Source: a bacterium (GTDB lineage Bacteria > Patescibacteriota > Minisyncoccia > Phycocordibacterales > UBA10002). Taken from it: 35,161 nt of DNA. The DNA is taken from the NCBI GenBank assembly GCA_030649775.1, contig JAUSFR010000013.1, positions 1 to 35,161 on the forward strand, read 5' to 3'. Below the pieces are notes generated by a model, which was given only the letters and a program-made list of their open reading frames with translations, did no database searches and was not told the DNA's origin. This document shows positions 153 through 34,174 of this stretch, one piece after another. Position 1 is the stretch's first letter. The number at the start of each line of letters is the position of its first letter. The position numbers and the translations under genes are program-made.

Positions 153-256
153 CCAATCTGCGAATGTATACCAACCTGCTCATACCTGCGAATAAGATAC
201 AGCGTAGGTAAATTAGTAGGTATTCGTAGATTGGAATGAATTAGTATTATTGGTAT
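153..256. repeat. imperfect inverted repeat built from about 9-nt ATT(C/A/G)GTA units
   Basis: 171-193 matches the reverse complement of 212-234 at 17/23 positions; the right arm shares 12-14 nt exact words with the reverse complement of 24091-24127. Confidence 0.6.
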
Positions 257-263
257 CTGTACT

Positions 264-1436
264 ATGAAGATTTTGATTTTTAGCACTGCCTATCTTCCGT
301 TCGTGGGAGGCGCGGAACTTGCGATTAAAGAAATTACCGACCGTTTGCCTGATATTTCTTTTACGCTCATCACCGCGCGCTTTTCGCGTGGCGTACCCGC
401 TCGTGAACGGATAGGGAATGTGGAGGTCTACCGCGTCGGGTTTGGAACTCGGTTTGATAAATGGTTCTTGCCGTGGCTCGGGCTCCGCAAAGCAAAACAG
501 CTTGAAAGCACTGCACACTTTGATGTGCTCTGGTCTATGATGGCGAGTCAAGCGAGCCTTTCGGCTACGTGGTTTAAGGAATTACACCAGGGCAAGAAAC
601 TCGTACTTACGCTCCAAGAAGGAGATGAAGAAGCGCACCTCAAACGGTATGTGCTGGGCAATGAATTTTTGTATGAGCTTTTCATCCGTTCGTGGCACGT
701 CGCGGTCTTCAAGCAGGCAAATGTGATTACCGCTATCAGTAACTACTTGGCCGACCGCGCGCGCAGAAACAGTTCGGCGGAAGTGGAAGTGATACCCAAC
801 GGAGTTACCGTTGGGAAATTCCAAATTCCAAATTCCAAATCCCAAACAAATTCAAAATCACAAAATACCGAAGTAAGGCAAAGGCTCGGGATAAAACCCG
901 AGGACAAGGTTGTTATTACCACATCGAGATTGGTGGAGAAGAATGGGGTAGGGGATTTAATTGAGGCAATGCAGTATCTACCGGAGTATGTAAAACTGCT
1001 CATTTGTGGCACGGGACATCTGGACCGGGACTATAAGCTAAAAGCTAAAAGCTATCAGCTAGAAGGTCGTATTCGGTTTCTTGGACACGTTCCGAACGAA
1101 CAGCTTCCCGACTATCTTCAGAGTGCCGACATATTCTGCCGACCGTCACTCTCCGAGGGCTTGGGGATTTCATTTCTTGAAGCGATGGCTGCGGGAGTGC
1201 CGGTAGTCGCTACTCCGGTGGGCGGTATTCCCGACTTTTTAAGCGACGGGGGAACAGGACTCTTTTGCGAAGTGAACAATCCCAAAAGCATTGCCGAAAA
1301 GGTACAAACGCTTTTGTCGGATAGTGACCTACGCACCCGTATTGCGACAAATGCGCTTGCAATGGTTCAGGAGAAATATGGATGGGAGGGAATCGCGGAG
1401 AAGATGAAGTCGGTGTTTGTTGACAAAGTAGACTAG
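264..1436 (+). CDS. glycosyltransferase family 4 (GT-B)
   Basis: GGAE, IPNGV, SRLVEKNG and EGLGISFLEAMAAGVPVV motifs. Confidence 0.95.
   Translation: MKILIFSTAYLPFVGGAELAIKEITDRLPDISFTLITARFSRGVPARERIGNVEVYRVGFGTRFDKWFLPWLGLRKAKQLESTAHFDVLWSMMASQASLSATWFKELHQGKKLVLTLQEGDEEAHLKRYVLGNEFLYELFIRSWHVAVFKQANVITAISNYLADRARRNSSAEVEVIPNGVTVGKFQIPNSKSQTNSKSQNTEVRQRLGIKPEDKVVITTSRLVEKNGVGDLIEAMQYLPEYVKLLICGTGHLDRDYKLKAKSYQLEGRIRFLGHVPNEQLPDYLQSADIFCRPSLSEGLGISFLEAMAAGVPVVATPVGGIPDFLSDGGTGLFCEVNNPKSIAEKVQTLLSDSDLRTRIATNALAMVQEKYGWEGIAEKMKSVFVDKVD
816..868 (+). repeat. in-frame heptamer array (AAATTCC)3-AAATCCC-AAAC-AAATTCA-AAATCAC
   Basis: Directly visible; encodes KFQIPNSKSQTNSKSQN. Confidence 0.9.
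1031..1065 (+). repeat. in-frame degenerate heptamer array CTAnnAG x5
   Basis: CTATAAG CTAAAAG CTAAAAG CTATCAG CTAGAAG. Confidence 0.85.
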
Positions 1437-1447
1437 TGGTATAGCAT
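1420..1447 (+). promoter_or_regulatory. sigma70-type promoter for the leader/proB unit
   Basis: TTGACA (1420-1425), 16 nt spacer, TAGCAT (1442-1447); predicted +1 is about the A of ATG 1454. Confidence 0.6.
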
Positions 1448-1453
1448 AGACGT

Positions 1454-1504
1454 ATGCAGAAGTTTCAGACCGTAAACGTTGTCCCGCCGCAAACCGCCCT
1501 CTAA
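1454..1504 (+). CDS. putative proB leader peptide MQKFQTVNVVPPQTAL
   Basis: Short ORF directly after the promoter; tandem CCG CCG Pro codons at 1484-1489; its stop overlaps the antiterminator strand. Confidence 0.6.
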   Translation: MQKFQTVNVVPPQTAL

Positions 1505-1572
1505 TCGGGTTGGTCCTTTCTTCGTACTTTATACTTAGAAAACCGCCCCGATTATGGGGGCGGTTTTATTTT
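1491..1572 (+). promoter_or_regulatory. putative transcription attenuator (1:2, 2:3 and 3:4 alternative hairpins)
   Basis: 1493-1499 pairs with 1507-1514; TAATCGGG 1502-1509 is the exact complement of CCCGATTA 1547-1554; terminator at 1539-1572. Confidence 0.65.
1539..1572 (+). terminator. intrinsic terminator (attenuator 3:4 hairpin)
   Basis: AAAACCGCCCC-loop-GGGGCGGTTTT followed by ATTTT. Confidence 0.85.
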
Positions 1573-1708
1573 GCGCAACAAATAAAAAATGAAAGAGATG
1601 CCTGTTGTTTTGATGTCGGCGTATCACGAAAGAGTGTGGTAACCCGACTTCAGGACGAGTGTCTTGTAGAAATTGTTCTTTCTTCGGCTCTTTTACAACT
1701 AGCTACCT

Positions 1709-2473
1709 ATGACTACAGAGCAAATTATTGTTATCAAAGTCGGCACCGATGTTCTTAAAAACATCCTTGCATTCAGCATCATTGCACGGCAAATTGCCGA
1801 GCTTAAGAAAATGGGCTACGGTGTCATTCTTGTTTCTTCGGGGGGCGTGACCTCGGGGAGCGACTGTCTCGCCTTTCTTGGAGGAAACCCGGAAGATTAC
1901 CACAAGTGCATTCTTGCAAGTATCGGCGCTTCGTCGCTTCTTGAACACTGGGGGAAAGCACTGATGCTTGACCGTCTCGTTCCGGCGCAGTGCTACTTCA
2001 CCTACGGGAACCTGCGTTTCAAAGGTGAAAAAGAAAGCATTCGTTCTCGTCTGCGTCTGCTCGCCTTTGACCCGTATGCCGTGCCTCTGGTGAATGAAAA
2101 TGACATTGTGTCCGGTGTGGAAATTGAGAAGATGAAAAAAGGACTCGGCGACAATGACCGCCTCGCGCGCATCATCGCCTGTCTTGTGCAGGCACATCAC
2201 GTTCTTTTCGTGACAGAGAAGGGCGCCGTCTATACCGACAATCCCGACAAAAACAAAGAAGCTAAGCGTATCTCACGAATTGACGCAAAGAAGGGATTTC
2301 GCTTGCCTGGGCAGACATCGGGTCCATCAAAAAATGGGAGTGGGGGAATGCAGTCAAAAATCAATCAAGCCGCGATATGCGCCCGAAAAGGGATGCATGC
2401 CGGCATTATCGGCCTGCACAACCCGCTTTCTTTTATGAAGGGGGAAGATGTCGGTACACTGGTGAGTGTATAG
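1709..2473 (+). CDS. proB: glutamate 5-kinase (no C-terminal PUA domain)
   Basis: IVIKVGT, LVSSGG, PLVNENDIV, GDNDRLA, VYTDNP and GSGGMQSK motifs of the amino-acid kinase/G5K family. Confidence 0.9.
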   Translation: MTTEQIIVIKVGTDVLKNILAFSIIARQIAELKKMGYGVILVSSGGVTSGSDCLAFLGGNPEDYHKCILASIGASSLLEHWGKALMLDRLVPAQCYFTYGNLRFKGEKESIRSRLRLLAFDPYAVPLVNENDIVSGVEIEKMKKGLGDNDRLARIIACLVQAHHVLFVTEKGAVYTDNPDKNKEAKRISRIDAKKGFRLPGQTSGPSKNGSGGMQSKINQAAICARKGMHAGIIGLHNPLSFMKGEDVGTLVSV

Positions 2474-2489
2474 GGTCGTATGTGTGCAA

Positions 2490-2522
2490 AAGGGCTGTCC
2501 TAACGGATAGCCCTTATTTTTT
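2490..2522 (+). terminator. intrinsic terminator after proB
   Basis: AAGGGCTGTCC-TAAC-GGATAGCCCTT followed by ATTTTTT. Confidence 0.8.
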
Positions 2523-2538
2523 GTTGTATGATTACCGT

Positions 2539-3588
2539 ATGAAAATCCTTATAGCGACAGGCATCTACCCTCCCGATATTGGAGGCCCGGCGCAATACGC
2601 CCGTGGGGTAGAGGAGGCATGGAAAAAAGAGGGGCACCAGGTAAAGGTGCTCGCGTTTTCCGCCGTTTGTCGGACAGGAGTTTTGAACTGGAAACTCCCG
2701 ACGGGTATTCGTCACCTCTACTACTTTTTGCGAGTACTCTGCTCGCTCCCCGGCACTGACTTTGTGTTTTCTCCCGACACCTTCAGTGCGGCGTTTCCCG
2801 CGCTTCTTGCCTGCAAACTGTTCAGAAAGAAACTTATCATCCGAACCGGAGGCGACTTCCTGTGGGAGCAGTATGTGGAGCGGACAGGAGACTTGGTATT
2901 GCTCAAAGATTTTTATGTTACGCACGTCAAACGGTTCAATCGGAAAGAGAAAATTATTTTCTCGCTTCTTCGGTTTCTGTTTCGGCACGTGGCCGCCACT
3001 ATTTTTAGCACCGCGTGGCAACGGGACATTTTTGAAAAGCCCTACGGCCTGAATCTCAAGAAGTGCTTTATTGTGGAGAACCAATATGGTCAGCAAACAC
3101 CACATCTAGAACATACTGACAAACTTAAGAATGTTGGTATGTCCAAGGTGTTTGTGGGGGGAACGAGAGAACTCCGATGGAAGAATCTCGCGCGTGTGCA
3201 GGAAGCGTTTGCAAAGGTGCAGAAAAAGGGACTGCCGGTTTCGCTAGTGCTCCAGACAGGAAGTCACGGGAAGTTTTTGATGGATATTGAGGAAAGTTAT
3301 GCGGTCATTCTTGCTTCGCTTGGCGATATTTCCCCCAACACCATTCTTGACGCTATTGCCCTCGGCAAGCCGTTCATTCTCACCCGCGAGACGGGCCTCT
3401 ATGACAAGCTGAAAGATATTGGCGTCTGGGTCAATCCCGAAGATGTAAGTGACATCGCGGAGAAAATTGAGTGGCTGTCGGACGCCCGTAATTACGAGGC
3501 ACAGTACGCAAAAATCCAGGCATATAGCTTTACTCACAGCTACGAGCAAATTAGTAACGAAATCATGAATATATATGCGCGTACTTAA
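2539..3588 (+). CDS. glycosyltransferase family 4
   Basis: MKILIATGIYPPDIGGPA N-terminus and DISPNTILDAIALGKP; start moved to ATG 2539, 6 nt after TATGAT. Confidence 0.9.
   Translation: MKILIATGIYPPDIGGPAQYARGVEEAWKKEGHQVKVLAFSAVCRTGVLNWKLPTGIRHLYYFLRVLCSLPGTDFVFSPDTFSAAFPALLACKLFRKKLIIRTGGDFLWEQYVERTGDLVLLKDFYVTHVKRFNRKEKIIFSLLRFLFRHVAATIFSTAWQRDIFEKPYGLNLKKCFIVENQYGQQTPHLEHTDKLKNVGMSKVFVGGTRELRWKNLARVQEAFAKVQKKGLPVSLVLQTGSHGKFLMDIEESYAVILASLGDISPNTILDAIALGKPFILTRETGLYDKLKDIGVWVNPEDVSDIAEKIEWLSDARNYEAQYAKIQAYSFTHSYEQISNEIMNIYART
3111..3142. repeat. in-frame 32-nt palindrome
   Basis: ACATACTGACAAACTTAAGAATGTTGGTATGT; 12 Watson-Crick and 2 G-T pairs out of 16. Confidence 0.75.
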
Positions 3589-4654
3589 TCTAAGTTTGGA
3601 TAGAAGTGCTTTAGAGGCTGGCTCTGCCGTGCAGACACGGCTTTTGGCGCTCTCGGAGAAAGTCGGGGAGATGACCGTACTTGTACCAGCAGGGAAGGGT
3701 GAGGTACAAAAGCCTTCGGAACACCTTACCGTGTATGCGGTTGAGGGAAATAAACTTCTCCAATTTTTCAAACTCTGGAGTAGGGGAATGCGAATGCTGT
3801 CGCAGAGAAAGTATGACCTCATTACGGTACAGGATGCCTATTTTGTCGGCTTCCTTGCCGTACAACTTGGGAAAAAATTTTCCGTGCCGGTTGAGGTGCA
3901 AGTGCATGGATTAGAGAAGTTTTCTTCTCTGCGAGAGCGAATTGCCGGATTCGTACTAAATCGCGCAACAAGAATTCGTGTAGTTAGTCGACGGTTAGGA
4001 AAACTTCTTGATTCAAGATTCAAGATTCAAGATTCAAGAATCTATCTCTTGCCGGTGTATACGCAGGTGGATATTCCTGAAAAACTTGGAAAGCGAAAGA
4101 CCGTTCCGTATCCATTTACTTTTTTGACCGTCGGACGATTGGTACCGGTGAAGAATATCGGATTGCAAATTCGGGCGTTTGCAAAGCTTGCCAAAAAGAT
4201 ACCGCATATAAAGTTACGGATTGTGGGAGATGGAGAGGAAATGGAAAGACTAAAGTCCGAAGCTCGAAGCTCTAAGTTCGAAGATAAGATAGTTTTTGAA
4301 GGGGAGCAGAAAGAGGTGGGAAAATATTATGAAGAGGCGGACGCATTTTTGCTCACCTCCGATTATGAAGGGTGGGGGAGGGTGGTGCTTGAGGCCTCGG
4401 CGTACAAATTGCCGATTATCATGACCAACGTGGGACTTGCTCTGGAGGTCATAAAAAACGAGGAGAGTGGACTTATCATTCCCGTTGGTGATGAACAGGA
4501 GCTTGTTCGCGCTATGCAGGATTTACTGGATAAACCGGAGCTTCGCGCGAAGCTCGGCGAGGGTGCTTATAGGGCTTTCTGTAAGCTCCCCAGTAAGGAG
4601 GATCAGATAGAGAAACAAGTTACCGAGTGGCAGGTACTCATAGACAGAAAATAG
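3575..4654 (+). CDS. glycosyltransferase family 4
   Basis: VGRLVPVKN, VGDG and EGWGRVVLEA motifs. Confidence 0.95.
   Translation: MRVLNLSLDRSALEAGSAVQTRLLALSEKVGEMTVLVPAGKGEVQKPSEHLTVYAVEGNKLLQFFKLWSRGMRMLSQRKYDLITVQDAYFVGFLAVQLGKKFSVPVEVQVHGLEKFSSLRERIAGFVLNRATRIRVVSRRLGKLLDSRFKIQDSRIYLLPVYTQVDIPEKLGKRKTVPYPFTFLTVGRLVPVKNIGLQIRAFAKLAKKIPHIKLRIVGDGEEMERLKSEARSSKFEDKIVFEGEQKEVGKYYEEADAFLLTSDYEGWGRVVLEASAYKLPIIMTNVGLALEVIKNEESGLIIPVGDEQELVRAMQDLLDKPELRAKLGEGAYRAFCKLPSKEDQIEKQVTEWQVLIDRK
4010..4044 (+). repeat. in-frame perfect heptamer repeat (GATTCAA)4 plus GAATCTA
   Basis: Directly visible; encodes DSRFKIQDSRI. Confidence 0.95.
4253..4283 (+). repeat. in-frame degenerate heptamer array AAGyyyk x4
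   Basis: AAGTCCG AAGCTCG AAGCTCT AAGTTCG AAG. Confidence 0.8.
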
Positions 4655-4677
4655 ATACGATCGTATCTATTTTCTGT
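4644..4677. repeat. perfect 34-bp spacer-free palindrome overlapping the GT stop codon
   Basis: ACAGAAAATAGATACGA|TCGTATCTATTTTCTGT. Confidence 0.95.
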
Positions 4678-4689
4678 AAGTGTCATTTA

Positions 4690-4719
4690 AGCAATAGTAC
4701 ACACGTGTCCACTATTGCT
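4690..4719. repeat. 30-bp near-perfect palindrome
   Basis: AGCAATAGT-AC-ACACGTGT-CC-ACTATTGCT. Confidence 0.85.
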
Positions 4720-4795
4720 AGGTGAGAGAGGGTGGGGGCAGGACAACAAATGACGCGGTGGAGTAGTTTAAGGTAGAATGGTCCCACATACCCAC

Positions 4796-5758
4796 ATGAC
4801 AAAAATTTCCCAAAAAATAAAATCCTCCGCCACCACTCCCACCACCCCGACTCGCGGACTCGGCACCCCTCCTCAGGCAGGAGGGGAGAAGAGAAAACCT
4901 CTTATTGGGTTCATTGGACAGGGATTTATCGGCAAGAACTATGCCGATGATTTTGAGCACCGCGGATTTGAGGTCGTGCGGTACGCGATGGAGGAGCCGT
5001 ACCGACAGAACAAAGAAAAAATAAAAGAGTGTGATATCGTCTTCATTGCCGTGCCGACACCGACGACACCAAAAGGTTTTAACTTTGGCATCGTACAAAG
5101 CGTGCTTTCGCTTGTGGGGAAGGGGAAAACGGCGGTGGTTAAATCAACGCTCCTTCCCGGGACAACGGAGAAGCTTCAGGAGAAGCACCGCGATATGTTC
5201 GTGTTTCATTCGCCGGAATTTTTGCGGGAGCGAAGCGCCGCGCACGACGCGGCGCATCCGAGTCGCAACATTATCGGCATTCCCGCGGACAATCAAAAGA
5301 CGCGCGAGGCGGCAAAGCGAGTACTTGAGGTGTTACCGAGCGCTCCGTTTTCTCGAGTGATGAGTTCGCGAGAAGCGGAGATGGTGAAGTACGGGGGCAA
5401 TAATTTCTTCTATGTTAAGGTGGTCTACATCAATATGCTCTACGACCTTGCGGAAAAGCTCGGGTGCAACTTCGAGGCAATCAAAGACGCGCTTGTCGCC
5501 GACCCGCGCATCGGAGATTCACATATGGACCCCGTGCATAAGAGCGGACACTCCGAGAAATCGGGGAGAGGGGCGGGCGGACACTGCTTCATCAAGGATT
5601 TTGCCGCATTCGCGTCTTTTTACGAAAGCCTTTTGAGCGACCCTGCCAGCAAGAAGGTGCTCCACGCGCTTCAGGATAAAAACAATGAGCTTCTAAGGAA
5701 CAGCGGAAAAGATATAGATTTGCTTAGCGAAGTGTACGGACAGGAAGTCAAGAAGTAG
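4796..5758 (+). CDS. ugd: UDP-glucose/GDP-mannose dehydrogenase family protein, short form
   Basis: GFIGQGFIG, FIAVPTP, KSTLLPGTT, SPEFLRE, AEMVKY, DPRIG and GGHCFIKD motifs; start at 4796 or 4778. Confidence 0.85.
   Translation: MTKISQKIKSSATTPTTPTRGLGTPPQAGGEKRKPLIGFIGQGFIGKNYADDFEHRGFEVVRYAMEEPYRQNKEKIKECDIVFIAVPTPTTPKGFNFGIVQSVLSLVGKGKTAVVKSTLLPGTTEKLQEKHRDMFVFHSPEFLRERSAAHDAAHPSRNIIGIPADNQKTREAAKRVLEVLPSAPFSRVMSSREAEMVKYGGNNFFYVKVVYINMLYDLAEKLGCNFEAIKDALVADPRIGDSHMDPVHKSGHSEKSGRGAGGHCFIKDFAAFASFYESLLSDPASKKVLHALQDKNNELLRNSGKDIDLLSEVYGQEVKK
4841..4887 (+). repeat. in-frame double-hairpin element in the N-terminal extension
   Basis: ACCACCCCGA..TCGG-CA-CCCCTCCT-CAGGC-AGGAGGGG-A; perfect 8-bp stem at 4866-4886. 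Confidence 0.65.
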
Positions 5759-5763
5759 CTACG

Positions 5764-6261
5764 ATGATTCATTTATTCCGCAAAGGTGAGGAGGTATGCA
5801 TGGGTATCGCACAGCGGTTCTTTCCGTGGTGCGCTCCGCATATGCGCCGATACCAACGACTGCTTCGCTACCTTGTGTCGGGTGGTATCGCAGCAGCCGT
5901 GGACCTCGGACTTCTGTATGTGTTCACCGATTTTTTCCTGATTCACTATCTCACTTCCGCCATTTTCGCCTTTCTCATTACGTTCTTTATAAGCTTTACG
6001 CTCCAAAAGTTCTGGACCTTTCAGGACAGCACCACGGACAGAGTGCACGTGCAGGCCACGATATATTTTCTGGTGGCGCTCATAAATCTCGTCATCAATA
6101 CCGCGCTTATGTATCTCTTTGTGGACATTATCGGGATATGGTATATGGCGGCGCAATTTCTTGCTTCAGGACTTCTTGCGTTTGAGAGTTTTTTTATTTC
6201 TCGTTATGTCATCTTTAAAGGGGGAGGTGGCCACTCCCCATCCGCCGAAAACAACCTATGA
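5764..6261 (+). CDS. GtrA family flippase-like membrane protein
   Basis: RYLVSGGIAAAVD and SFTLQKFWTF motifs; four TM segments. Confidence 0.9.
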   Translation: MIHLFRKGEEVCMGIAQRFFPWCAPHMRRYQRLLRYLVSGGIAAAVDLGLLYVFTDFFLIHYLTSAIFAFLITFFISFTLQKFWTFQDSTTDRVHVQATIYFLVALINLVINTALMYLFVDIIGIWYMAAQFLASGLLAFESFFISRYVIFKGGGGHSPSAENNL

Positions 6262-7256
6262 AGCTTTTGATTGTCACGCAAAAAGTGGACGCGACCGACC
6301 GCAACCTCGGTTTCTTTATCGGGTGGATGAGAAAATTCTCCGAGCACGCGGAGATTGTGGTTATCGCGAATGAAGTCGGAGTGCATGACTCATTTCCCCG
6401 CGTTGAGGTGCTCTCGCTCGGAAAAGAGCATGGTGCTTCGCGCCTCGCGCGTTTCTTTCGGTATCAAAGATTGCTCTTCCGCATACTCCCTACGGTAGAC
6501 GGGGTATTCTTTCATATGTGTCCCGAGTATGTGCTTGGCGCGCATCTTCTGCCCGCGCTCTACGGAAAGAAAAGCCTTTTGTGGTACGTGCACAAGGAGG
6601 TGTCCGTGCGTCTCCGGTTTGCGTCCTTTTTCGTGAGCAAGATTTTTACCGCCTCCAAAGAAAGCTGTCGTCTGGGGGGCGACAAGATTGAGGTTGTTGG
6701 ACACGGCATTGATACGGACTTGTTCACGCCCGAGACGATACCGAGGGACAAACCACGGCTCGTCACCGTGGGGCGGATTGCGCCGGTAAAGGACCTCACG
6801 ACCATTATTCTGGGGTTTGTGGAGCTACTGAAGAAGTTCCCCGAAGCGGAGCTGTCCGTCATCGGAGAACCCATTACCGATGTCGACCGAGCGTATCAGA
6901 GCACGCTTGCCGGTCTATCTCCCAAGGTACGTTTTGGCAGTCTCCCGTATGGAGATGTTTTTACTTCTCATGCACATAACATTTTTGTACACGCAAGCCG
7001 TACGGGTAGTCTGGATAAGGCGGTGCTGGAGACACTTTCCGCGGGTCTCCCTGTGTTCACCTCGAGCGAGGCGTTCGGTGCTGGTCTTCCCGGAATAACG
7101 AAGTTCGCGGAAGGCGACCCGATAGACCTCGCTCAAAAAATCGCCGGTGCTTTTTTGCGGGGAGAAATCGTCTCTTCCGAAAAAGCGCGAGAATTTGTTC
7201 ACACGAACCATAGCTTAACGAAACTTATTCAGCGTATTATTTCTTTCTACGGGTAA
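6258..7256 (+). CDS. glycosyltransferase family 4
   Basis: GHGIDTD, VGRIAPVK and GSLDKAVLETLSAG motifs. Confidence 0.9.
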   Translation: MKLLIVTQKVDATDRNLGFFIGWMRKFSEHAEIVVIANEVGVHDSFPRVEVLSLGKEHGASRLARFFRYQRLLFRILPTVDGVFFHMCPEYVLGAHLLPALYGKKSLLWYVHKEVSVRLRFASFFVSKIFTASKESCRLGGDKIEVVGHGIDTDLFTPETIPRDKPRLVTVGRIAPVKDLTTIILGFVELLKKFPEAELSVIGEPITDVDRAYQSTLAGLSPKVRFGSLPYGDVFTSHAHNIFVHASRTGSLDKAVLETLSAGLPVFTSSEAFGAGLPGITKFAEGDPIDLAQKIAGAFLRGEIVSSEKAREFVHTNHSLTKLIQRIISFYG

Positions 7257-7268
7257 AGTACCGTCACT

Positions 7269-8351
7269 ATGACCAACGTCTATATAGAACAACAAGGACT
7301 TCCCGAACTTACTCCCTCACTCGTTTTCTGGCCAAACTATCGGTTTCCGATAAAGGAGAGCAGGCTGTTTCTGCGTGACATTATGGCACAGTACTCGGAG
7401 CCGTTTTTCAATCTGGTTGACCGAAAGGAGGAGGCCGACTTTTTTGCCGTTCCGTTTGAGTATTTTGACGTCGTAGACGGATTTGGTTCATATCTTGCGC
7501 GTGTGTATGCTTCCGCGAAAGAGGCAGGGAAAAAAGTGTTGCTTTTTGACTATACCGACTATGTGGACCGCGTTCCCACTCTTCCCAAGCATGCCGTACT
7601 CTTTCGCGTTTCCGCCTACCGGCACCACAAAAAAGAGAACGAGTTCGTGATGCCGTATTTTGTGCAGGACTTTGGTTCGCTTCCGTTTTCCACGAAGTCG
7701 CCGGAGCCGGTCATCGGTTTTTGCGGACTTTCGGGGTACGGGCGCTTCCCTCAGTCGATCAAAGCGGAAGTTAAATGGTACATGACCGCCGTCACACTGT
7801 TTCTTCAGGGCGACCGTTTGCGAGCGGTGCACCGCAAGGGAATCTACTGGAGAAAGCAGAGCCTTTCCGTGTTACGGCAAACGGCGGGCATTAAACCCGC
7901 GTTTGTGGAACGTCATGCCTACTCGCTCCACCGCGACAGTGTGGAGGGAACTCCCGAGAGGATACGCGCCGAGTACACGGAGAACCTGCGTGCCTCGCAT
8001 CTCGCGCTTGTGGTTCGCGGGGACGCCAATGCCTCGCAACGTTTCTATGAGGCTCTGTCTGCGGGGCGTATCCCACTCTTCCTTGATACCAATTGTGTCC
8101 TCCCGCTTGAAGAGCTCGTTCCCTACGATAGCGGTATGCTACGCGTGCCGTGGACGGGGCTACGTACCCTCGGAGAGGTTGCGTCAAAGCGGTATACTAT
8201 GCTTACCGATACGGCCTTTATGGAAATGGAGCGGTCGGCGCGAAGGATTTTTCAGGGTTATCTCAAACTGGACCGTTACTTCGCTATCGTGTTTGATAAG
8301 GTGCATTCGCCGTATAGGAACGTGCTCTACGGCGCGACACATCATGAGTAA
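7269..8351 (+). CDS. exostosin-like (GT47-related) protein
   Basis: EEADFFAVP and C-terminal LVVRGDANASQRFYEALSAGRIPLFL..LP match the exostosin family pattern. Confidence 0.7.
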   Translation: MTNVYIEQQGLPELTPSLVFWPNYRFPIKESRLFLRDIMAQYSEPFFNLVDRKEEADFFAVPFEYFDVVDGFGSYLARVYASAKEAGKKVLLFDYTDYVDRVPTLPKHAVLFRVSAYRHHKKENEFVMPYFVQDFGSLPFSTKSPEPVIGFCGLSGYGRFPQSIKAEVKWYMTAVTLFLQGDRLRAVHRKGIYWRKQSLSVLRQTAGIKPAFVERHAYSLHRDSVEGTPERIRAEYTENLRASHLALVVRGDANASQRFYEALSAGRIPLFLDTNCVLPLEELVPYDSGMLRVPWTGLRTLGEVASKRYTMLTDTAFMEMERSARRIFQGYLKLDRYFAIVFDKVHSPYRNVLYGATHHE

Positions 8352-9210
8352 TGCTTCACCAAAGAAAAAAGTGCTCATCACGGGAGCAATGGGTTTTACA
8401 GGGAGACACCTTGCCTCGCTTCTTTCCCGTGACCAAACACTCGTGCTTACGCTTTCGGGTCTTTCGCCAGAGGCCAACCTCTTAAACTTTTCTGAATGCG
8501 ACTTCTTAAATCCATCTTCGGTCAAAGGTCTTATCACGGAAAGTCAGCCGGACCAGATTTACCACCTTATCGGGAGCTATACGAACGAGTATGAAAGAGA
8601 TTACGCGTCAAATGTGCTCTCCACCAAACATTTGCTTGACGCGGTGCGCGAGGCAGGCACAAACAGCCGTGTGCTTCTTGTGGGAAGTTCCGCGGAGTAC
8701 GGGTTTCCCGATGACCCCACTCTTCCCGTGAGGGAGATACACCCCCTTCGCCCTGTGTCCGTCTATGGCCTCGTGAAGGTGTATCAGCATACTCTCGCGG
8801 GTACCTATAGTCGGCTCTACAATATGGATATCGTGGAAGTTCGGCCCTTCAATCTCAAAGGAAAGGGTATCTCCTCGCTTCTCTTTGTCGGAAAGATGGA
8901 GGAGGAGATACGGAGATACAAAAACGGAGAGATACAAAGCATCGTTACGGGCGATTTGTCGGTAGAGCGCGACTATATTGATATTGACGAGGCAATCAAG
9001 TACTATCGGAGGGTTCAAGAGGCAGGGAAAACGGGGGAGGTCTATAACGTGGGGAGCGGTAAGGCTTCCTCACTACGGGACGTCCTTTCGGAGATGCTCA
9101 AAGTGGAGGGTCTTACGATGGATATCGTGAAAGAAGGGAAGCACGCGGTACCCGGCAAAATGGTCGTCCCCAAGCTTTTTGCGGATATCACGAGCCTAAA
9201 AAAATTGTAA
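8344..9210 (+). CDS. NAD-dependent epimerase/dehydratase, Rmd/Gmd-like
   Basis: ITGAMGFTG, PDQIYHL, GSSAEYG, YGLVK, RPFN and RDYIDI motifs; start moved to ATG 8344. Confidence 0.85.
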   Translation: MSNASPKKKVLITGAMGFTGRHLASLLSRDQTLVLTLSGLSPEANLLNFSECDFLNPSSVKGLITESQPDQIYHLIGSYTNEYERDYASNVLSTKHLLDAVREAGTNSRVLLVGSSAEYGFPDDPTLPVREIHPLRPVSVYGLVKVYQHTLAGTYSRLYNMDIVEVRPFNLKGKGISSLLFVGKMEEEIRRYKNGEIQSIVTGDLSVERDYIDIDEAIKYYRRVQEAGKTGEVYNVGSGKASSLRDVLSEMLKVEGLTMDIVKEGKHAVPGKMVVPKLFADITSLKKL

Positions 9211-9224
9211 ATCAGGTAATTGGT

Positions 9225-10157
9225 ATGCGAACACTCACCATCATCGCTCCGGTCTATAACGAGGAGGAGGTCATCGCGGATTTTTACCGCGAGCTCAAAG
9301 TGGAACTCGGCAAGCTTTCGGGCTACAGTGCGAGTATGCTTTTTGTGGTTGGACGGGGGAGCGACCGCACGCTTCCGATTTTAAAAGAGCTCGCCTCAAA
9401 AGACAAGAGTCTTCGGGTACTCTGGCTCTCGTCACGGTTCGGACATCAGATGCAACTTCTCGCGGGTATTGACCATGCGGAGAGTGATGTTCTCATTATG
9501 ATGGACTCCGATTTACAGCATCCGCCGAGCGTTATTCCGAAGCTCCTCGCCGAGTTTGAGAAAGGGAGTGATGTGGTTTACACCATTCGCGAAAAAACCG
9601 CCGACCAGAGTTTTTACCGCAAGTGGAGTTCGGATATTTTCTACTGGTTTTTGAACCGCATATCGGATGTGCGCATTAGTGGTAATGCCGCCGATTTCAG
9701 ACTTATCTCCCGCAAGGTCGCGAAGGTACTTCAACAGGAGATTCGCGAGCGCAACTTATTTTTGAGGGGTATTATTCCCTGGCTGGGCTTTAATCAGGTG
9801 GGCGTCCACTTTGTCGCAAACCCCCGAAAGGCGGGGAAGAGCAAATATTCGCTCTCACACCTTATTACGTTCGGACTCGCTGGTGTGGTGTCCTTCAGCC
9901 GAAAACCTCTTCGGGTGGCGATTGTCGTGGGGCTTGTGGTCGCTACGTTAGGTTTCCTGTATGCACTCTTTGTCACCGTGCAGTCGTTTATGAGTAAGAG
10001 CCTCCCTGAAGGATGGGCGACCGTTATCGTGCTCCTCTCCGTCTTCGGAGGGTTACAACTCGTGTTTCTCGGCGTGCTCGGTGAATACATTGGTGCGATT
10101 TTTGACGAGGTAAAAAAACGACCGCATTATATCGTGGATGAGAAGATTAATTTCTAA
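9225..10157 (+). CDS. GT2 polyprenol-phosphate glycosyltransferase (GtrB/ArnC-like)
   Basis: PVYNEE, FGHQ, MDSDLQHPP, DFRLISR, two C-terminal TM helices and GEYIG..F.EVKKRP.Y. Confidence 0.92.
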   Translation: MRTLTIIAPVYNEEEVIADFYRELKVELGKLSGYSASMLFVVGRGSDRTLPILKELASKDKSLRVLWLSSRFGHQMQLLAGIDHAESDVLIMMDSDLQHPPSVIPKLLAEFEKGSDVVYTIREKTADQSFYRKWSSDIFYWFLNRISDVRISGNAADFRLISRKVAKVLQQEIRERNLFLRGIIPWLGFNQVGVHFVANPRKAGKSKYSLSHLITFGLAGVVSFSRKPLRVAIVVGLVVATLGFLYALFVTVQSFMSKSLPEGWATVIVLLSVFGGLQLVFLGVLGEYIGAIFDEVKKRPHYIVDEKINF

Positions 10158-10219
10158 TTTCCCCGCCTGCGCTGAAGCAATTTCCGAGGCCAGGTACTAT
10201 AGCTACTTTCAGAAAGAAC

Positions 10220-10334
10220 CAAAGCACAATGTCCAAAAAACCAAACAAAGCACAATGTTTCAAAAAATCAAACGAGCACGGTTTGTGTTTTTGAGATTTG
10301 TGTAGTTTGTTTGGTCTTTGTGTACTGTGTTTTG
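10220..10334. repeat. intergenic inverted-repeat element with A/C-rich and G/T-rich arms of about 54 nt
   Basis: Arms 10220-10273 and 10281-10334; the left arm aligns by eye at about 45/54 with the reverse complement of 25287-25339. Confidence 0.8.
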
Positions 10335-10360
10335 TAAAGTTTAAAATAGGTAATTGCATT

Positions 10361-11887: not shown

Positions 11888-11914
11888 GTGAATAAGAAAA
11901 AAGCGAACACCCGT

Positions 11915-21708: not shown

Positions 21709-21735
21709 AGTCGTAAAAACTCGTGTGTACCTAGT

Positions 21736-21765: not shown

Positions 21766-21786
21766 ATCACATTAAATCAGTATAAT
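21759..21786 (+). promoter_or_regulatory. consensus sigma70 promoter
   Basis: TTGACA-16 nt-TATAAT. Confidence 0.8.
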
Positions 21787-21844
21787 CACCCGAAATGTCC
21801 TTTTGAGAGAGAGGCAGTCAAAAACCACAAAACGAAGGAGAACT

Positions 21845-22702: not shown

Positions 22703-22722
22703 GCTTCACCACGCAAAACTTC

Positions 22723-22756
22723 TAGCCAATCTTTCCACGCGAAGATTGGCTATTTT
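22723..22756 (+). terminator. intrinsic terminator of the GalT-like gene
   Basis: TAGCCAATCTT-loop-AAGATTGGCTA-TTTT; overlaps the stop codon of the convergent gene. Confidence 0.75.
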
Positions 22757-24078: not shown

Positions 24079-24088
24079 AAGATAAACA

Positions 24089-24132
24089 TACCAATCTACG
24101 AATAATACTAATGATACGAATACCTACGAATA
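24089..24132 (-). repeat. about 9-nt periodic ATT(C/A/G)GTA array upstream of the hddC-gmhB start
   Basis: Minus strand TTATTCGTAGGTATTCGTATCATTAGTATTATTCGTAGATTGGTA; homologous to 212-256. Confidence 0.75.
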
Positions 24133-24164
24133 ACGGGGATACCTTGCGCTCCCGCACAGGATTC

Positions 24165-24209
24165 GGGGCGACAACACAGGGTGAAGCGCCCCGTGGTGTC
24201 GCACCCTAC
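24165..24209 (-). repeat. GTAG-type REP-like hairpin
   Basis: Minus strand GTAGGGTGCGACACCACGGGGCGCTTCACCCTGTGTTGTCGCCCC forms a long GC-rich stem. Confidence 0.65.
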
Positions 24210-24211
24210 AC

Positions 24212-25211: not shown

Positions 25212-25346
25212 AATTTCCAAAGCACAAGAACCCAAAAATTCAAACAAAGCCCCAAACCGTCCCAAACTGTTCAAACCATCTGTCCTGTTTGTGTTTTGCA
25301 TCATTGTGTTTTGTGTGGGTTTTTGGGTATTGTGCTTTGTGCTTTT
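25212..25346. repeat. inverted-repeat element, same family as 10220-10334
   Basis: Arms 25212-25276 and 25287-25346; CAAAGCACAAT..CCAAAAA..CACAATG is shared with 10220-10273. Confidence 0.8.
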
Positions 25347-28666: not shown

Positions 28667-28728
28667 GTTTGTGCCTTTGGATAGTTTGCATTTTTGTTTG
28701 GTTTTTGTGATTTGTGTTTTGGATAATT
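28667..28728 (+). repeat. solo G/T-rich arm of the 10220/25212 element family
   Basis: GTTTGTG...TTTGTTTGGTTTTTGTGATTTGTGTTTTG aligns with 10281-10334; ends 10 nt before the asnB ATG. Confidence 0.7.
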
Positions 28729-30605: not shown

Positions 30606-31253
30606 ATGACTACGTTCACGTTTATAAAGGAAATACTGAAAGGGAAAGACCTGTATCGCATTCTGATGAATGAGGCGTGCGAGCGATGTGAGCTTAAAGG
30701 ACAGGTGCTTGATATCGGCGGAGGCGCGGGGACTCCAAGCTATCTTCGGTTTTTCAAAATGGAAAGCGGGGCGAACGTTACCTCGGTTGACGCTCTGCTC
30801 GCAGGGAAGGCGCAGGTTAACTTTGAAACGGACGCGCTTCCAAGCGCAAATGGGAGTACCGATACCGCGCTCCTGCTCAACGTACTGGAGCACATTTACC
30901 ACTACGGGCATCTTCTTTCGGAGACCAATCGCGTTTTGCGTCCCGGAGCGCGTCTTATCGGTGTCGTGCCGTTTCTTATCAACTATCATCCCGACCCGCA
31001 CGATTATTTTCGATATACGAATGAGAGTTTGCGCGAGATACTTACTTCTGCGGGTTTCAAAGATATACACATTCAGGCGCTCGGCACCGGCCCTTTTTCC
31101 GCTTCATTCTCGCAGATTGAGTTTATGATTCCGCGAGTGCTGAAACTTTTCGTTGTTCCCCTCGCGCTTCTTTTGGACCGATGCGCGGGTGTATTCAGGA
31201 AAAATCTTCCCGACCAATTTCCGCTCGGGTACTTTTTTACCGCTACAAAATGA
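30606..31253 (+). CDS. class I SAM-dependent methyltransferase
   Basis: VLDIGGG, NVLEH, LRPG and VPF...HPDPHDYFRYT motifs. Confidence 0.88.
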   Translation: MTTFTFIKEILKGKDLYRILMNEACERCELKGQVLDIGGGAGTPSYLRFFKMESGANVTSVDALLAGKAQVNFETDALPSANGSTDTALLLNVLEHIYHYGHLLSETNRVLRPGARLIGVVPFLINYHPDPHDYFRYTNESLREILTSAGFKDIHIQALGTGPFSASFSQIEFMIPRVLKLFVVPLALLLDRCAGVFRKNLPDQFPLGYFFTATK

Positions 31254-32413
31254 AGCAAAAAATTATCTACATCGCAAACGTCAGGTTACCTACGGAAAAG
31301 GCGCACGGACTTCAAATTATGAAGATGTGTGAAGCGTTTGGCAAGTTCGAAGTTCGAAGTTCGAAGTTCGAAGAAAAAGATTCCAGAATTGAGGTGGAGC
31401 TCGTCGTGCCGAGGCGAAGAAACCCCATCACGGAAGACCCGTTTGACTATTACGGGGTGGAGCGGAACTTTACCGTTACGCGAATTCCGACACTTGATAT
31501 CGTTTCTTTCGGACGAGTGGGTTTTTGGGTGGAGCAAACGCTCTTTTTGCTTTTCGCGCGACTCTATCTCTTCGGGAAAAAGTGTTTTGTTTATACACGC
31601 GAAGAAGCTACGGGTTTCTTTTTCCGTAACAATTTTCTGGAACTGCACACGCTTCCCGCGCACGAAGGTGCGGTGCATAGGTTACTGTGGCGACGAGCCC
31701 GACATATCTTTGTACTCACTACGCTTATGAAGGAACAGTTGATGGAATGGGGAATTTCCGAGCAGAAACTCACCGTCCTTCCCGACGCGGTTGATTTCAA
31801 TGCGTTTGATATTTCCATATCAAAAGAAGACGCGCGAAAGAAACTCTTCCTCCCGCTTGATAAAAAGATAGTGCTCTACACGGGAAGTTTTTTCCGGTAT
31901 CCGTGGAAGGGGGTGGATACGCTGCTTGAGGTAGCACAAAATTATCAAAAAGAAGAAGTACTGTTTGTGCTCGTTGGGGGAAGTGAAAGGGAACTCAAAC
32001 AAGCGAAAGAAAAATATCCGGGGAAAAATATTGTGCTTCTCGGCCATGAGTCGCCACGTGCTATTCCTCTCTTTCTCAAGGCATCTGACGTCCTCGTACT
32101 TCCGAACAAAAGCGGATACGAAATGTCGGAAAAACACACGTCACCGCTTAAACTGTTTGAATATATGGCGTCGGGACGTCCCATCGTAAGCTCCGATATT
32201 CCGTCACTCCGTGAAGTGCTCACGGAAAAGGAGGCCATATTTTTCAAGCCGAATGACCCAAAGGACTTGGCGCGGGTTCTCGCGGAGCTCTTGAATAATT
32301 CGGTGCTTGCGGATAGTCTTTCCGAAAGCGCGCGAGAGAAGGCCAAAAGCTACACGTGGGACAAACGGGCGGAGCGCGCGCTCGGTGTTCTCGTGCCTAA
32401 CGTTTCCCCTTAA
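31250..32413 (+). CDS. glycosyltransferase family 4
   Basis: RLPTEKAHGLQI, KGVD and SPLKLFEYMASG motifs; start moved to ATG 31250. Confidence 0.93.
   Translation: MKQKIIYIANVRLPTEKAHGLQIMKMCEAFGKFEVRSSKFEEKDSRIEVELVVPRRRNPITEDPFDYYGVERNFTVTRIPTLDIVSFGRVGFWVEQTLFLLFARLYLFGKKCFVYTREEATGFFFRNNFLELHTLPAHEGAVHRLLWRRARHIFVLTTLMKEQLMEWGISEQKLTVLPDAVDFNAFDISISKEDARKKLFLPLDKKIVLYTGSFFRYPWKGVDTLLEVAQNYQKEEVLFVLVGGSERELKQAKEKYPGKNIVLLGHESPRAIPLFLKASDVLVLPNKSGYEMSEKHTSPLKLFEYMASGRPIVSSDIPSLREVLTEKEAIFFKPNDPKDLARVLAELLNNSVLADSLSESAREKAKSYTWDKRAERALGVLVPNVSP
31343..31373 (+). repeat. in-frame perfect heptamer repeat (AAGTTCG)4-AAG
   Basis: Directly visible; encodes KFEVRSSKFE. Confidence 0.95.
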
Positions 32414-32456
32414 AATAAGGTTTTAAGACCGCACCATAAAGCCTTTTTTGCACCCT

Positions 32457-33443
32457 ATGTCATCCCCCATCATCATCAGCCGGACACCGTTTCGCCTTTC
32501 ACTCGGAGGCGGTTCTACCGACCTGCCTTCCTACTATGAAAAGCACGGTGGATTTGTCTTTGGCGTTGCCGTCAATCTGTATATGGATGTGTTTGTGAAA
32601 GAGCCTCGCTCCGACGACCTCGTGCACGTGCACTACAAACATTTTGAATCGGTCTCACACGCGAAGGAGGTAACGCACGACATCGCGAGGCAGGCGCTGT
32701 TGATGCGAGGCCTTACCACCAAAGTCGCCATTTCGTTTAAAGCCGACACTCCGGCGGGCACGGGGCTCGGTTCATCGGGTGCGTGCGCGGTCGCGGTGCT
32801 GAAGGGTCTCGCACTCTACCAGAACAAAAAGCTCTCCAATCGCGAGGCGGCGGAGCAATCATTCCTGCTCACCAAGGCGCTCGGACTTCCCGATGGCGTG
32901 CAGGACCCGTACATCTGCGCCGAAGGAGGGTTTGTGGCACTCACGATTGAGAAAAACGGAAAAGTGAAGGTAGAGAAGCCCCGCATCGCGAAGAGTACCG
33001 TAGAGGAATTTTTCGCGAACAGCATCTTCTATTACACCGGTGTCGTGCGGGAGAGTAAACAACTTCTTGCCGAACAAGACGCGACCAAAGTACAGGAGCT
33101 GAAGCACCGCACCAAAGATATCGGTAGGGAAGTCTACAAGGCGTTTCGTTCGGGAAAGCTCCACCACTTTGGCAAGCTCATGGATGAGCATTGGCATATC
33201 AAAAAGCAGATGTCTTCCAAAATGAGCACAGACCGCTTTGACGAGATATACGCGGAGGCCATACGCGCAGGAGCACTCGGTGGGAAAATTATGGGCGCGG
33301 GAGGCGGTGGCTATTTTATGTTTTACTGTCCCACGCGGAAGGCGAAACGCGCCGTACAAAAAGCGCTCGGGAGGTTCAAGATGCGCGAGATGCACTTTGA
33401 GATTGATACCAAAGGTGCGCGTACCCACATCATCACGCCGTAA
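32457..33443 (+). CDS. second HddA-like GHMP sugar-phosphate kinase
   Basis: TPFRLSLGGGSTD, GTGLGSSG, QD and GGKIMGAGGGG motifs. Confidence 0.88.
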   Translation: MSSPIIISRTPFRLSLGGGSTDLPSYYEKHGGFVFGVAVNLYMDVFVKEPRSDDLVHVHYKHFESVSHAKEVTHDIARQALLMRGLTTKVAISFKADTPAGTGLGSSGACAVAVLKGLALYQNKKLSNREAAEQSFLLTKALGLPDGVQDPYICAEGGFVALTIEKNGKVKVEKPRIAKSTVEEFFANSIFYYTGVVRESKQLLAEQDATKVQELKHRTKDIGREVYKAFRSGKLHHFGKLMDEHWHIKKQMSSKMSTDRFDEIYAEAIRAGALGGKIMGAGGGGYFMFYCPTRKAKRAVQKALGRFKMREMHFEIDTKGARTHIITP

Positions 33444-33450
33444 GTTTTAA

Positions 33451-33993
33451 ATGTTAATGAAAACAGAAGCAAAAAAACGAGCGGTCTTTTTTGACCGCGA
33501 TGGGGTTATCTTTAAACCCATCGTGATGGATGGGCGTCCTCGGGCGCCACACAGCATTGTGGAGTACAAGACACTGTCCGGAATTATGCCTGGAGCAAAA
33601 GAAGCTGTGGAAAAAGTTAAGGCACTCGGCTTTCTCGCGATTCTGGTGACGAATCAACCGGACATCGCGTACGGTGTTATTTCAAAAAAAGAGTGGGAGT
33701 GGGTACAGAGTCAGTTAAGCAGTATCCCGTTTGACGATATTTTTATTTGCTTTCACCGTCGGGACGATAATTGTGAATGTATGAAGCCCAAACCCGGTAT
33801 GCTTCTTGAGGCGGAAAAGAAATGGAATATAAACCTTGCGAAGTCGTTTATGGTGGGGGATACGGAGAGTGATGTCCTCGTTGCAAAAGAAGCCGGATGC
33901 AAAAGTATTCTGGTGGACGCGCCCTATAATTCCAGCGTTTCTAGCGATATGCGTACTCATTCTCTTTCCGAACTTTCAAACCTCTTGTCTTAG
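33451..33993 (+). CDS. gmhB: GmhB-like HAD-IIIA sugar-bisphosphate phosphatase
   Basis: FFDRDGV, TNQPD, C.H....CECMKP and MVGD motifs. Confidence 0.85.
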   Translation: MLMKTEAKKRAVFFDRDGVIFKPIVMDGRPRAPHSIVEYKTLSGIMPGAKEAVEKVKALGFLAILVTNQPDIAYGVISKKEWEWVQSQLSSIPFDDIFICFHRRDDNCECMKPKPGMLLEAEKKWNINLAKSFMVGDTESDVLVAKEAGCKSILVDAPYNSSVSSDMRTHSLSELSNLLS

Positions 33994-34174
33994 AGCCTGT
34001 TCATAATCTAACCGCATTATAGACCTAGGACATAGCTTGCCTGCCGAAATGTTCAAAATTCTGCTACAAATCGCGTCTTTTTCGTCAGCGTACTTGGGTA
34101 CGCTTCCTCAAAATCCGCAATTTTCGCAACGAATTTTTAACATTTCATTCAGGCATTAGATTATGAACAGGCTC
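33993..34174. mobile_element. 182-bp MITE
   Basis: Perfect TIR GAGCCTGTTCATAATCTAA / TTAGATTATGAACAGGCTC flanked by TTA on both sides (33990-33992, 34175-34177); internal palindromy; no transposase. Confidence 0.9.

Follow-up and report, generated by a model that had tools for sequence, protein, structure and literature searches.

Four-unit heptamer cassettes in a glycan gene island and across the genome of an ultra-small Patescibacteria bacterium

Heptamers are over-represented among the long simple sequence repeats (SSRs) of bacteria, for which slippage related to the footprint of the polymerase has been proposed (Mrazek 2007, as cited in PMC4692102). Examples given in the same account are the GGGAATC repeats of Xanthomonas and the GGGGA(C/T)T repeats of Nostoc (Rehm et al. 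2015, PMC4692102), together with the STRR heptanucleotides of Calothrix (reference 39 of PMC4692102). As presented there, the Xanthomonas GGGAATC repeats prefer four units, are found close to stop and start codons, make up 70-75 inverted pairs and are under-represented in open reading frames (ORFs), and the four-unit preference and the inverted pairing are attributed to G-quadruplexes (PMC4692102). Here we describe short arrays of 7-nt units, or heptamer cassettes, in a 35,161-nt stretch of DNA (contig JAUSFR010000013.1, hereafter the window), which is one whole contig (C76) of the 916,745-nt genome, in 88 contigs, of an ultra-small bacterium of the Candidate Phyla Radiation (CPR)/Patescibacteria. 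This genome (G000) is 100% complete by marker genes. Labels of the type C76 denote its contigs, G013 is the genome of a sister species, and L followed by a number designates a retrieved sequence from a relative or locus.

We class the window cassettes as a variant of the heptamer repeats already described in cyanobacteria and Xanthomonas. They have in common with the Xanthomonas and Nostoc repeats the 7-nt unit, an excess restricted to period 7, the preference for four units, the convergent (inverted) pairs that form stem-loops, an apparent concentration in spacers near stops and starts, and extensive variation among close relatives. They differ from those of Xanthomonas in that the units are not G-rich and belong to at least 61 families, in that the host is a 0.9-Mb CPR genome, and in that 74 of 150 arrays lie inside ORFs, in frame, at protein sites conserved across the genus. 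Because the units are not G-rich and fall into so many families, G-quadruplex formation cannot explain the four-unit preference here, which needs another explanation. Our literature search found no description of in-frame heptamer cassettes in CPR bacteria.

Period-7 arrays across the genome

Period 7 is uniquely over-represented in the genome, far beyond chance. Tandem Repeats Finder (TRF) returned 847 rows for the whole genome, 339 of them with period 7, and 12 rows for the window, six with period 7. When exact runs were counted genome-wide (a run of period p of at least p+12 nt), 66 were found at period 7, four of them inside the window, compared to one after codon-block shuffling; periods 2-6 gave none, periods 8, 9, 10 and 11 gave 1, 5, 1 and 0, and the multiples 14 and 21 gave 21 and 10, respectively. 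A more lenient scan yielded 150 arrays at period 7 versus 0-7 at periods 5, 6 and 8-11. The length of these arrays peaks sharply at 30-31 nt (~4.3 units), in coding and non-coding DNA alike, and in G013, where 107 arrays were found in 420 kb, the modal length is 30 nt. The cyanobacterial octamer HIP1 had 0 matches, so this is not a HIP1-type genome.

The 150 arrays comprise at least 61 canonical unit families, a few of which are frequent, and the dominant families differ between G000 and G013. Imperfections within arrays are often fixed, with the identical imperfect cassette returning between different flanks. Thus, 27 imperfect 28-mers are present at three or more unlinked places, and one 30-mer of the CTATAAG family was found in C12, C34, C54 and C72. 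The two species have 56 periodic 24-mers in common, and one CTAAACG-type cassette stands at two places in G000 and at four in G013.

Non-coding DNA, which makes up only ~13% of the genome, holds 76 of the 150 arrays, a 4-fold enrichment, and the remaining 74 are coding, as judged from crude gene calls (longest spanning ORF of at least 80 aa). An inverted partner lies within 150 nt of 21 of the 76 non-coding and 10 of the 74 coding arrays, compared to 0 of 150 controls, and none was found for the five strong arrays of the window. A stop codon is present in the unit on 124 of the 152 strands of non-coding arrays, on the sense strand of 20 of the 74 coding arrays and on 31% of strands for random heptamers, a contrast between coding and non-coding arrays that is partly circular because stop-rich arrays cannot lie in ORFs. 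Stops on both strands are found in the units of 55 of the 76 non-coding arrays, and many non-coding units share a CTA/TAG or CTAG core, which provides stops in all three frames and in both directions. Two features that characterize heptameric SSRs, over-representation of period 7 and a preference for about four units with inverted pairing, are therefore both present in this genome. No match to MutS_V was found in G000, and canonical mismatch repair may be missing from it.

A preliminary description of the window had seen in it a glycan island densely populated by small elements, through which loops and 5' UTRs of surface-glycan enzymes would be remodelled. Its total of at least 15 small elements is fair (we count ~15), and "glycan island" is the correct name, given that the gene content is almost wholly glycan. 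The high density was not borne out. The window holds 5 of the 150 strong arrays (3.3%) in 3.8% of the genomic DNA, that is, 14 per 100 kb versus 16.4 for the genome; TRF rows amount to 0.34 versus 0.92 per kb, and inverted repeats with arms of at least 16 nt to 1.14 versus 4.13 per 10 kb. The last figure is the second lowest among the 22 contigs of at least 15 kb, and shuffled versions of the window already give 0-4 such repeats.

Nor are glycan genes the preferred hosts elsewhere: among ten array-bearing ORFs scanned on other contigs, nine encode housekeeping enzymes (GyrB, PolA, a KsgA-type rRNA dimethylase, RNase H, LeuRS, an amidase, TsaD, LepA and MurB) and the tenth had no Pfam match. 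All five window arrays do lie inside genes for GT4-type glycosyltransferases, which cover ~10% of the window, but this is a post hoc count, and the confinement arises largely because four of the five are old residents of two GT4 families. The window elements are local members of genome-wide repeat families and not a glycan-specific system, and they occur at the background density of the genome, although this background is itself extraordinary. The idea that the repeats specifically remodel surface-glycan enzymes is thereby removed, and the window becomes part of a genome-wide phenomenon.

In-frame arrays in three GT4 genes

A lag-7 scan of the window detected the five strong arrays, all of them in frame, in three GT4 genes: GT4a (264-1436), GT4b (3575-4654) and GT4c (31181-32413). 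The 7-nt arrays of the preliminary description, and its remark that elements inside genes keep the frame open, were thus upheld. The arrays are:

812-846, element extending to 864, plus strand: GT4a site 1, ~4.4 units of AAATTCC and an overlapping 18-nt repeat in two copies, aa 185-201
1031-1065, plus strand: GT4a site 2, cassette of four to five heptads of the CTATAAG/CTAAAAG family, aa 256-268
4005-4044, plus strand: GT4b site 1, perfect in-frame array of 4.3 units of GATTCAA, aa 146-155
4258-4285, plus strand: GT4b site 2, in-frame array of the CGAAGCT family, aa 228-237
31339-31378, plus strand: GT4c array, perfect in-frame array of 4.4 units of AAGTTCG, aa 55-65

Alignment of orthologous glycosyltransferases with and without the arrays showed that four of the five sites are shared and periodic. 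These four arrays add no residues, and their sites are heptad-periodic in nearly all orthologues of the genus. GT4a site 1, directly after an IPNGV motif, carries other heptad-periodic units or a shorter segment in the orthologues. GT4a site 2, in the helix that follows a GxG motif, is periodic in 20 genus sequences of equal length with various units, and in the window one of its units is altered where a perfect unit would create an in-frame TAA. For GT4b, 17 orthologues of the same genus were compared, and at both sites periodicity, position and length are kept while the units differ. Those at site 1 include GATTCAA, GAATTCA, TATTCCA, ATTTCCA, CTACACG and AAGCTCG; site 2, whose CGAAGCT family is the commonest coding family in the genome, is periodic in 16 orthologues of equal length. 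The length changes that do occur at these sites are of exactly seven codons, missing from three orthologues at site 1 and from two at site 2 (7-codon indels in L011-L014). The GT4b orthologue closest to the window differs from it by the same two substitutions in each of four units.

Unit identity was quantified in 13, 16 and 20 sequences of equal length for GT4b site 1, GT4b site 2 and GT4a site 2, respectively. It amounts to 0.67-0.71 within an array versus 0.47-0.54 between positionally homologous units of different species, with control periods 6 and 8 giving 0.22-0.34. Units are therefore more alike within an array than between species, which is the signature of concerted evolution.

To locate the GT4b arrays in the protein, an AlphaFold2 model was built from the 17-sequence alignment, with a mean predicted local distance difference test score (pLDDT) of 89.7 and local values of 88-93 at the arrays. 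In this model, site 1 forms the end of helix 139-149 and the turn before strand 155-158, and site 2 the end of helix 223-232 and the loop before strand 239-243. Lying on helix ends and turns, the arrays would therefore be ordinary structural segments and not extra loops. These ultra-small CPR bacteria tolerate and keep periodic seven-base cassettes at fixed sites in essential enzymes, with units that turn over while protein length stays constant.

The GT4c array is of another kind. It is an insertion of ~12 residues in the loop after the first helix. None of the 19 genus orthologues that span the site has it; 17 show the short form (~12 residues less) and two carry other inserts in the loop. 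Rickettsia palindromic elements (RPEs) reportedly are palindromic, measure ~100-150 nt and add tens of residues. The parallel with RPEs drawn in the preliminary description holds in that repeat DNA is tolerated in frame in conserved genes and in that the GT4c array is a loop insertion specific to this lineage and, in our comparison, to this genome. It fails for the other four arrays, which add nothing and occupy old periodic sites. All five consist of tandem 7-nt units without an inverted partner, so that a palindromic in-frame insertion missing from the orthologues, as expected of an RPE, was not found in the window, its single insertion (31339-31378) being tandem and not palindromic. Several orthologues carry other in-frame inserts, of 15-60 residues, G/S/P-rich or acidic and at fixed positions, none of which is present in G000; they were seen in GT4a orthologues (L044, L045, L062, L046, L047, L048, L055, L059) and, of the same kind, in GT4b orthologues (L003-L008). 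These inserts look more like Rickettsia-style elements than the heptamer arrays do.

Comparison of G000 with G013 extended these observations beyond the window. For 25 coding arrays of G000 a G013 match spans the site, and 14 of them are also periodic in G013 (lag-7 identity of at least 0.55). Nine of these 14 show no change in length, mostly with another unit and often one of the CTAAACG/CTACACG families that dominate in G013, a use of dominant families that would be circular as a test and is given as description only. Among the 25 sites, three lack 10-13 codons in G013 and two have 10-18 extra. At GT4a site 2, the G013 orthologue (L046) carries a 30-nt palindromic segment (10 codons) nested within the heptamer array, which it splits in frame. 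This insert recalls the small dispersed repeats (SDRs) of Nostoc, which are said to be nested in heptamer arrays; the likeness extends to tiny dispersed elements that lack a transposase of their own and occur beside heptamer arrays and mini-transposons. The difference is that the window has no SDR-type insert, and that its cassettes are the heptad arrays themselves.

The k-mers of the array at 815-858 are common to dozens of metagenome contigs with unrelated flanks, from four groundwater runs (X1-X4) belonging to three studies, so that the same cassette is widespread in that groundwater community. The unitigs of the likely source run break at the arrays.

Origin of the cassettes

We give about an even chance to a reading in which the cassettes are kept periodic and exchanged by non-reciprocal copying at the DNA level, through slipped-strand or template-switch conversion within and between arrays, filtered by selection. 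The main class would be the four-heptad cassette of ~30 nt, found in spacers alone or as inverted, hairpin-forming pairs, and tolerated in frame because three 7-nt units make 21 nt, that is, a 7-residue repeat that fits surface helices and turns if none of the unit frames has a stop. Repair synthesis by strand slippage or template switching would operate between the units of one array, and copying could also take place between dispersed arrays with a common core, in a genome in which no MutS was found; selection would remove those products that close the reading frame or disturb the fold. The evidence comprises the period-7 excess, the four-unit length, the recurrent families, the genus-wide sites with species-specific units and the likeness of units within arrays. 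The indels observed measure exactly seven codons (three units) or ~10 codons (one cassette). There is thus indirect support for the general notion that the units are spread and renewed by copying.

Several points weigh against this reading. A mechanism based on replication alone does not readily account for so sharp a four-unit preference, and it leaves unexplained both the length-neutral swap between families with little shared sequence, such as a CTTCGAG array in G000 that faces a CTAAACG-type cassette in G013, and the seeding of new sites, as in GT4c. Particular imperfect cassettes have been kept in species whose proteins are only 50-80% identical, which could reflect function or a master template instead. 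The association at the order level with the Y1/HUH family described below would point to an enzyme. The population data were assembled contigs only, in which no event was seen in progress, and the coding/non-coding split of the genome rests on the crude calls mentioned above, which accept any ORF of at least 80 aa.

The proposal that trans-acting machinery writes and spreads the units was therefore considered in its own right. What stood of it is the multi-copy nature of the units and their behaviour as copied cassettes; the search of G000 turned up no enzyme that would write them. In its most specific form, a dedicated enzyme, with the RAYT-like Y1 (HUH) family as the best candidate, would write or move both four-heptad cassettes and hairpins, and the occupation of coding DNA would be collateral; we regard this, the main rival reading, as possible but unlikely. 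RAYTs are thought to act on repetitive extragenic palindromic (REP) elements and on REPINs. The cassettes resemble REP/REPIN-RAYT systems in being accompanied by short, multi-copy, hairpin-forming spacer repeats, in coexisting with Y1_Tnp-type genes and perhaps in the co-occurrence of both at the order level. A profile search of the genome found two matches to PF01797 (Y1_Tnp), both outside the window, in C27 and C74 (27.7 and 27.4 against a Pfam cut-off of 23), and the HUH and Tyr motifs can be read in the sequence of the C74 protein. The same two proteins score 21.8 and 28.8 bits with the NCBIfam model REP_Tyr_transpos, far under its cut-off of 80. As already stated in the preliminary description for transposases and nucleases, no such family was found among 32 ORFs scanned in the window (the partial ORF at 34886-35161 was left out), and genome-wide there was no match to RVT_1, OrfB_IS605, DDE_Tnp_1 or Cas1, and only a sub-threshold one to rve (C45).

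The surroundings of the Y1 genes speak against the enzyme. The gene in C74 (L042 1234-1953, minus strand) is bracketed by a private 21-nt palindrome at 1218-1238 and 1961-1981, after its stop and before its start, which has only these two copies in the genome; no heptad elements directly flank the Y1 genes of C27 or C74. Neither a Y1 gene flanked by an abundant REP family nor a single REP consensus with a conserved head was therefore found, and more than 60 unit families contrast with the usual one REP family per RAYT.

The distribution of the family points both ways. PF01797 is present in 30 of 41 relatives, and at the order level, where densities (like those within the genus) refer to sampled DNA and not to whole genomes, one period-7 array was found in 418 kb from seven genomes without the family versus 22 in 548 kb from nine genomes with it, uncorrected for kinship. 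Within the genus, G013 and G000, in which the Y1 gene is present, have 25.5 and 16.4 arrays per 100 kb, G004, with a distant match, has 6.7, and G019, G012 and G018, with distant paralogues only, have 3.3, 2.6 and 1.0, while G007, without a match, has 0 arrays in 161 kb. Two genomes depart from this pattern, one each way: G011 has 0 arrays in 75 kb despite a 53%-identical Y1 orthologue, and G020 has 14 arrays in 151 kb (9.3 per 100 kb) and no match. In addition, the genus genomes of low density form a more distant GT4 subclade, so phylogeny confounds the association. An argument from the lack of near-perfect arrays in G020 was dropped, as only ~1-2 would be expected. The Y1 link is thus a lead with mixed support and not a finding.

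The discrete length of the cassettes, the identical imperfect copies at unlinked loci and across species, and the amplification of particular families in particular lineages fit an enzyme. We lend limited credence to a broader proposal, namely a previously undescribed, order-wide cassette-writing activity at the DNA level that would take four-heptad cassettes of ~30 nt from dispersed masters and copy them into spacers and also, without change of length, over the coding sequence of both essential and glycan genes, possibly with Y1/HUH catalysis. Such an activity, if true, would add a new way for small elements to move and would continuously supply protein surfaces with peptide variation.

It is doubtful that the spacer elements (listed in the next section) are instead selected RNA or DNA signals, such as hairpins for processing, stability or termination, G/U-rich leaders that replace the Shine-Dalgarno sequence, or three-frame stop pads, with the in-frame arrays as spill-over. 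The position of the elements suits signals, since they begin at a stop codon or immediately behind it and leave 9-35 nt to a start codon, and so do the conservation of specific imperfect cassettes between species, the inverted partners of the non-coding arrays and their stops on both strands, the weight of the last being lessened by the partial circularity noted above. Most heptamer repeats of Xanthomonas are reported to be transcribed (PMC4692102). However, in contigs of run X3, from a related strain ~85-90% identical to G000, 11 and 20 nt stand in place of the spacers at 4631-4765 and 10154-10397, respectively (one contig each), so the spacer elements there are dispensable insertions. The many unrelated unit families argue against a single reader protein. 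Rfam at the gathering threshold gave 0 matches in the whole window, and consensus scans of positions 1-20000 found 20 promoter-like and 37 terminator-like sites versus 16.5 +/- 4.0 and 25.8 +/- 6.3 in shuffles, which is not clearly above them. Selected signals would, moreover, leave the persistence of period-7 DNA at fixed enzyme sites unexplained.

Contingency loci, in which gain or loss of one unit would frameshift the GT4 genes and switch surface glycans, are highly improbable. The model for them is neuO of Escherichia coli K1, the gene of a glycan-modifying enzyme (capsule O-acetyltransferase) switched by 3-53 heptanucleotide repeats at its 5' end and out of frame in 42 of 64 genomes according to PMC13001214. 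Although the window offers the same combination of a unit that is not a multiple of 3, read as a 7-residue peptide repeat, and surface-glycan enzymes as hosts of all five arrays, these arrays have ~4 units, a fixed length and a mid-gene position, GT4a and GT4b are frameshifted in 0 of ~37 same-genus orthologues (which makes on/off switching unlikely) and change in length only by seven codons, the essential single-copy genes gyrB, polA, leuS and lepA carry arrays too, and no variant of +/-7 nt was present in the contigs of the four runs, which cannot show minor variants. The varying repeat number and frequent out-of-frame alleles of phase-variable SSRs were thus not seen in GT4a or GT4b. Whichever mechanism holds, the cassettes bear on how streamlined genomes generate and tolerate variation.

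Spacer elements and gene content of the window

Besides the in-frame arrays, the spacers of the window harbor the following elements:

153-263: hairpin of ~110 nt by folding, with irregular units containing CGAAT, ending 29 nt before the GT4a start
1539-1567: GC-rich, terminator-like palindrome with flanking A and T runs, after GT4a, single copy
4644-4677 and 4690-4719: two adjacent spacer-free palindromes (17+17 nt, 100%, and 15+15 nt, 87%), directly after the GT4b stop, single copy
10217-10336: hairpin between genes, with the A/C-rich arm first and the G/T-rich arm second, reaching to 25 nt before the PMT_2 ATG at 10361
15427-15461: G/T-rich four-heptad arm of GGTTATT type (AATAACC family), 9 nt before the epimerase start (ATG 15467)
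24086-24209, minus strand: TACGAATA-type short repeats and a GC-rich hairpin headed by GTAG, in the spacer before the NTP-transferase/HAD gene
25215-25345: hairpin with arms of ~50-55 nt, the A/C arm overlapping the 3' end of a DegT gene and the G/T arm upstream of the epimerase ATG at 25183 (minus strand)
28680-28720, plus strand: G/T-rich tract ending 18 nt before the AsnB start (ATG 28739)
33988-34179: element of 192 nt resembling a miniature inverted-repeat transposable element (MITE), with 24-nt terminal inverted repeats at 96%

The same compact spacers thus house elements of separate kinds, namely the hairpins, the MITE-like element and the single-copy palindromes. Several elements are dispersed in the genome. 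BLAST found copies of the 153-263 hairpin at 83-96% in C37, C17 (twice), C69, C23 and C65. The 10217-10336 hairpin, whose A/C-rich arm includes a 27-nt direct repeat in two copies (10220-10273), has partial copies in C74, C23, C83, C39, C37 and C51, and the 25215-25345 hairpin has a 130-nt copy at 88% in C83 and partial ones in C37, C46 and C23. The four-heptad arm (15430-15461) has an exact 28-mer in common with C6:17879 and C30:12418, and the 28680-28720 tract has one match, of 32 nt, in C74. Only the repeat part of 24086-24209 has a counterpart elsewhere, a partial match in C85; its hairpin at ~24165-24209 (minus strand, dG -30.6) is single-copy. It alone stands out from a blanket search for GTAG-headed hairpins, which returned 76 folds that are mostly meaningless.

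Elsewhere in the genome, at least 12 more copies of the MITE-like element are present (86-94% identity), some of them at contig ends, so that it combines the terminal inverted repeats, small size and many dispersed copies of a MITE. Its left terminal repeat holds the TAG stop (33991-33993) of the GmhB-like gene and its right end lies 8 nt before the next start, so that it constitutes the whole spacer and supplies the gene end. For an autonomous partner, BLAST of the 88-contig assembly found no pair of ends more than ~200 nt apart, and there was no match to DDE_Tnp_1 or OrfB_IS605.

Most of the element types named in the preliminary description could be recovered: the inverted arms of about 54 nt (the A/C + G/T hairpins at ~10217-10336 and 25215-25345), the spacer-free palindromes, the GTAG hairpin, the MITE and the G/T-rich arms in front of genes, which end ~9-35 nt before the ATGs at 10361, 15467, 28739 and 25183 (minus strand). 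The arrays of about 9 nt proved weak, amounting to 2.6 copies of a 9-nt unit at 22319-22342 and the irregular TACGAATA-type units, and instead of a dRS3-like pair we found one short palindrome in a PMT_2 gene (11495-11514) and two looser ones, none of them a repeated pair. That the units are multi-copy is true of the cassettes, the MITE-like element and the dispersed hairpins, and not of the 4644-4719 palindromes, the terminator-like palindrome and the GTAG hairpin.

The 32 ORFs scanned with Pfam and NCBIfam encode almost only glycan functions. Seven are glycosyltransferases (four of the GT4 type and three GT2), one is a GT47-like protein and three are PMT_2 proteins. Others encode GtrA, UDP-glucose dehydrogenase, five epimerases/reductases, two DegT aminotransferases, a C-methyltransferase and AsnB, and they are accompanied by two GHMP kinases, a SIS protein, a GmhB-like phosphatase and nucleotidyltransferases.

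Three gene starts, as well as spacer boundaries, would be misjudged in annotation if the elements were ignored. The G/T-rich arms before ATG 10361 and 25183 place the longest-ORF starts at 10298 and 25255 too far upstream, and the likely starts are ATG 10361 for the PMT_2 gene and 25183 (minus strand) for the epimerase gene. The GT4-like gene that follows the amino-acid-kinase gene likely starts at ~2539 rather than at 2377, with a terminator-like hairpin at 2490-2515 preceding it. Finally, a SIS protein, two GHMP kinases, the GmhB-like phosphatase, an NTP-transferase/HAD fusion, a HIT protein and a second nucleotidyltransferase are encoded at 18844-24078 and 32448-34889; this set, assigned from family matches, suggests a pathway for a nucleotide-activated heptose or a related sugar, beside the three PMT_2-type transferases.

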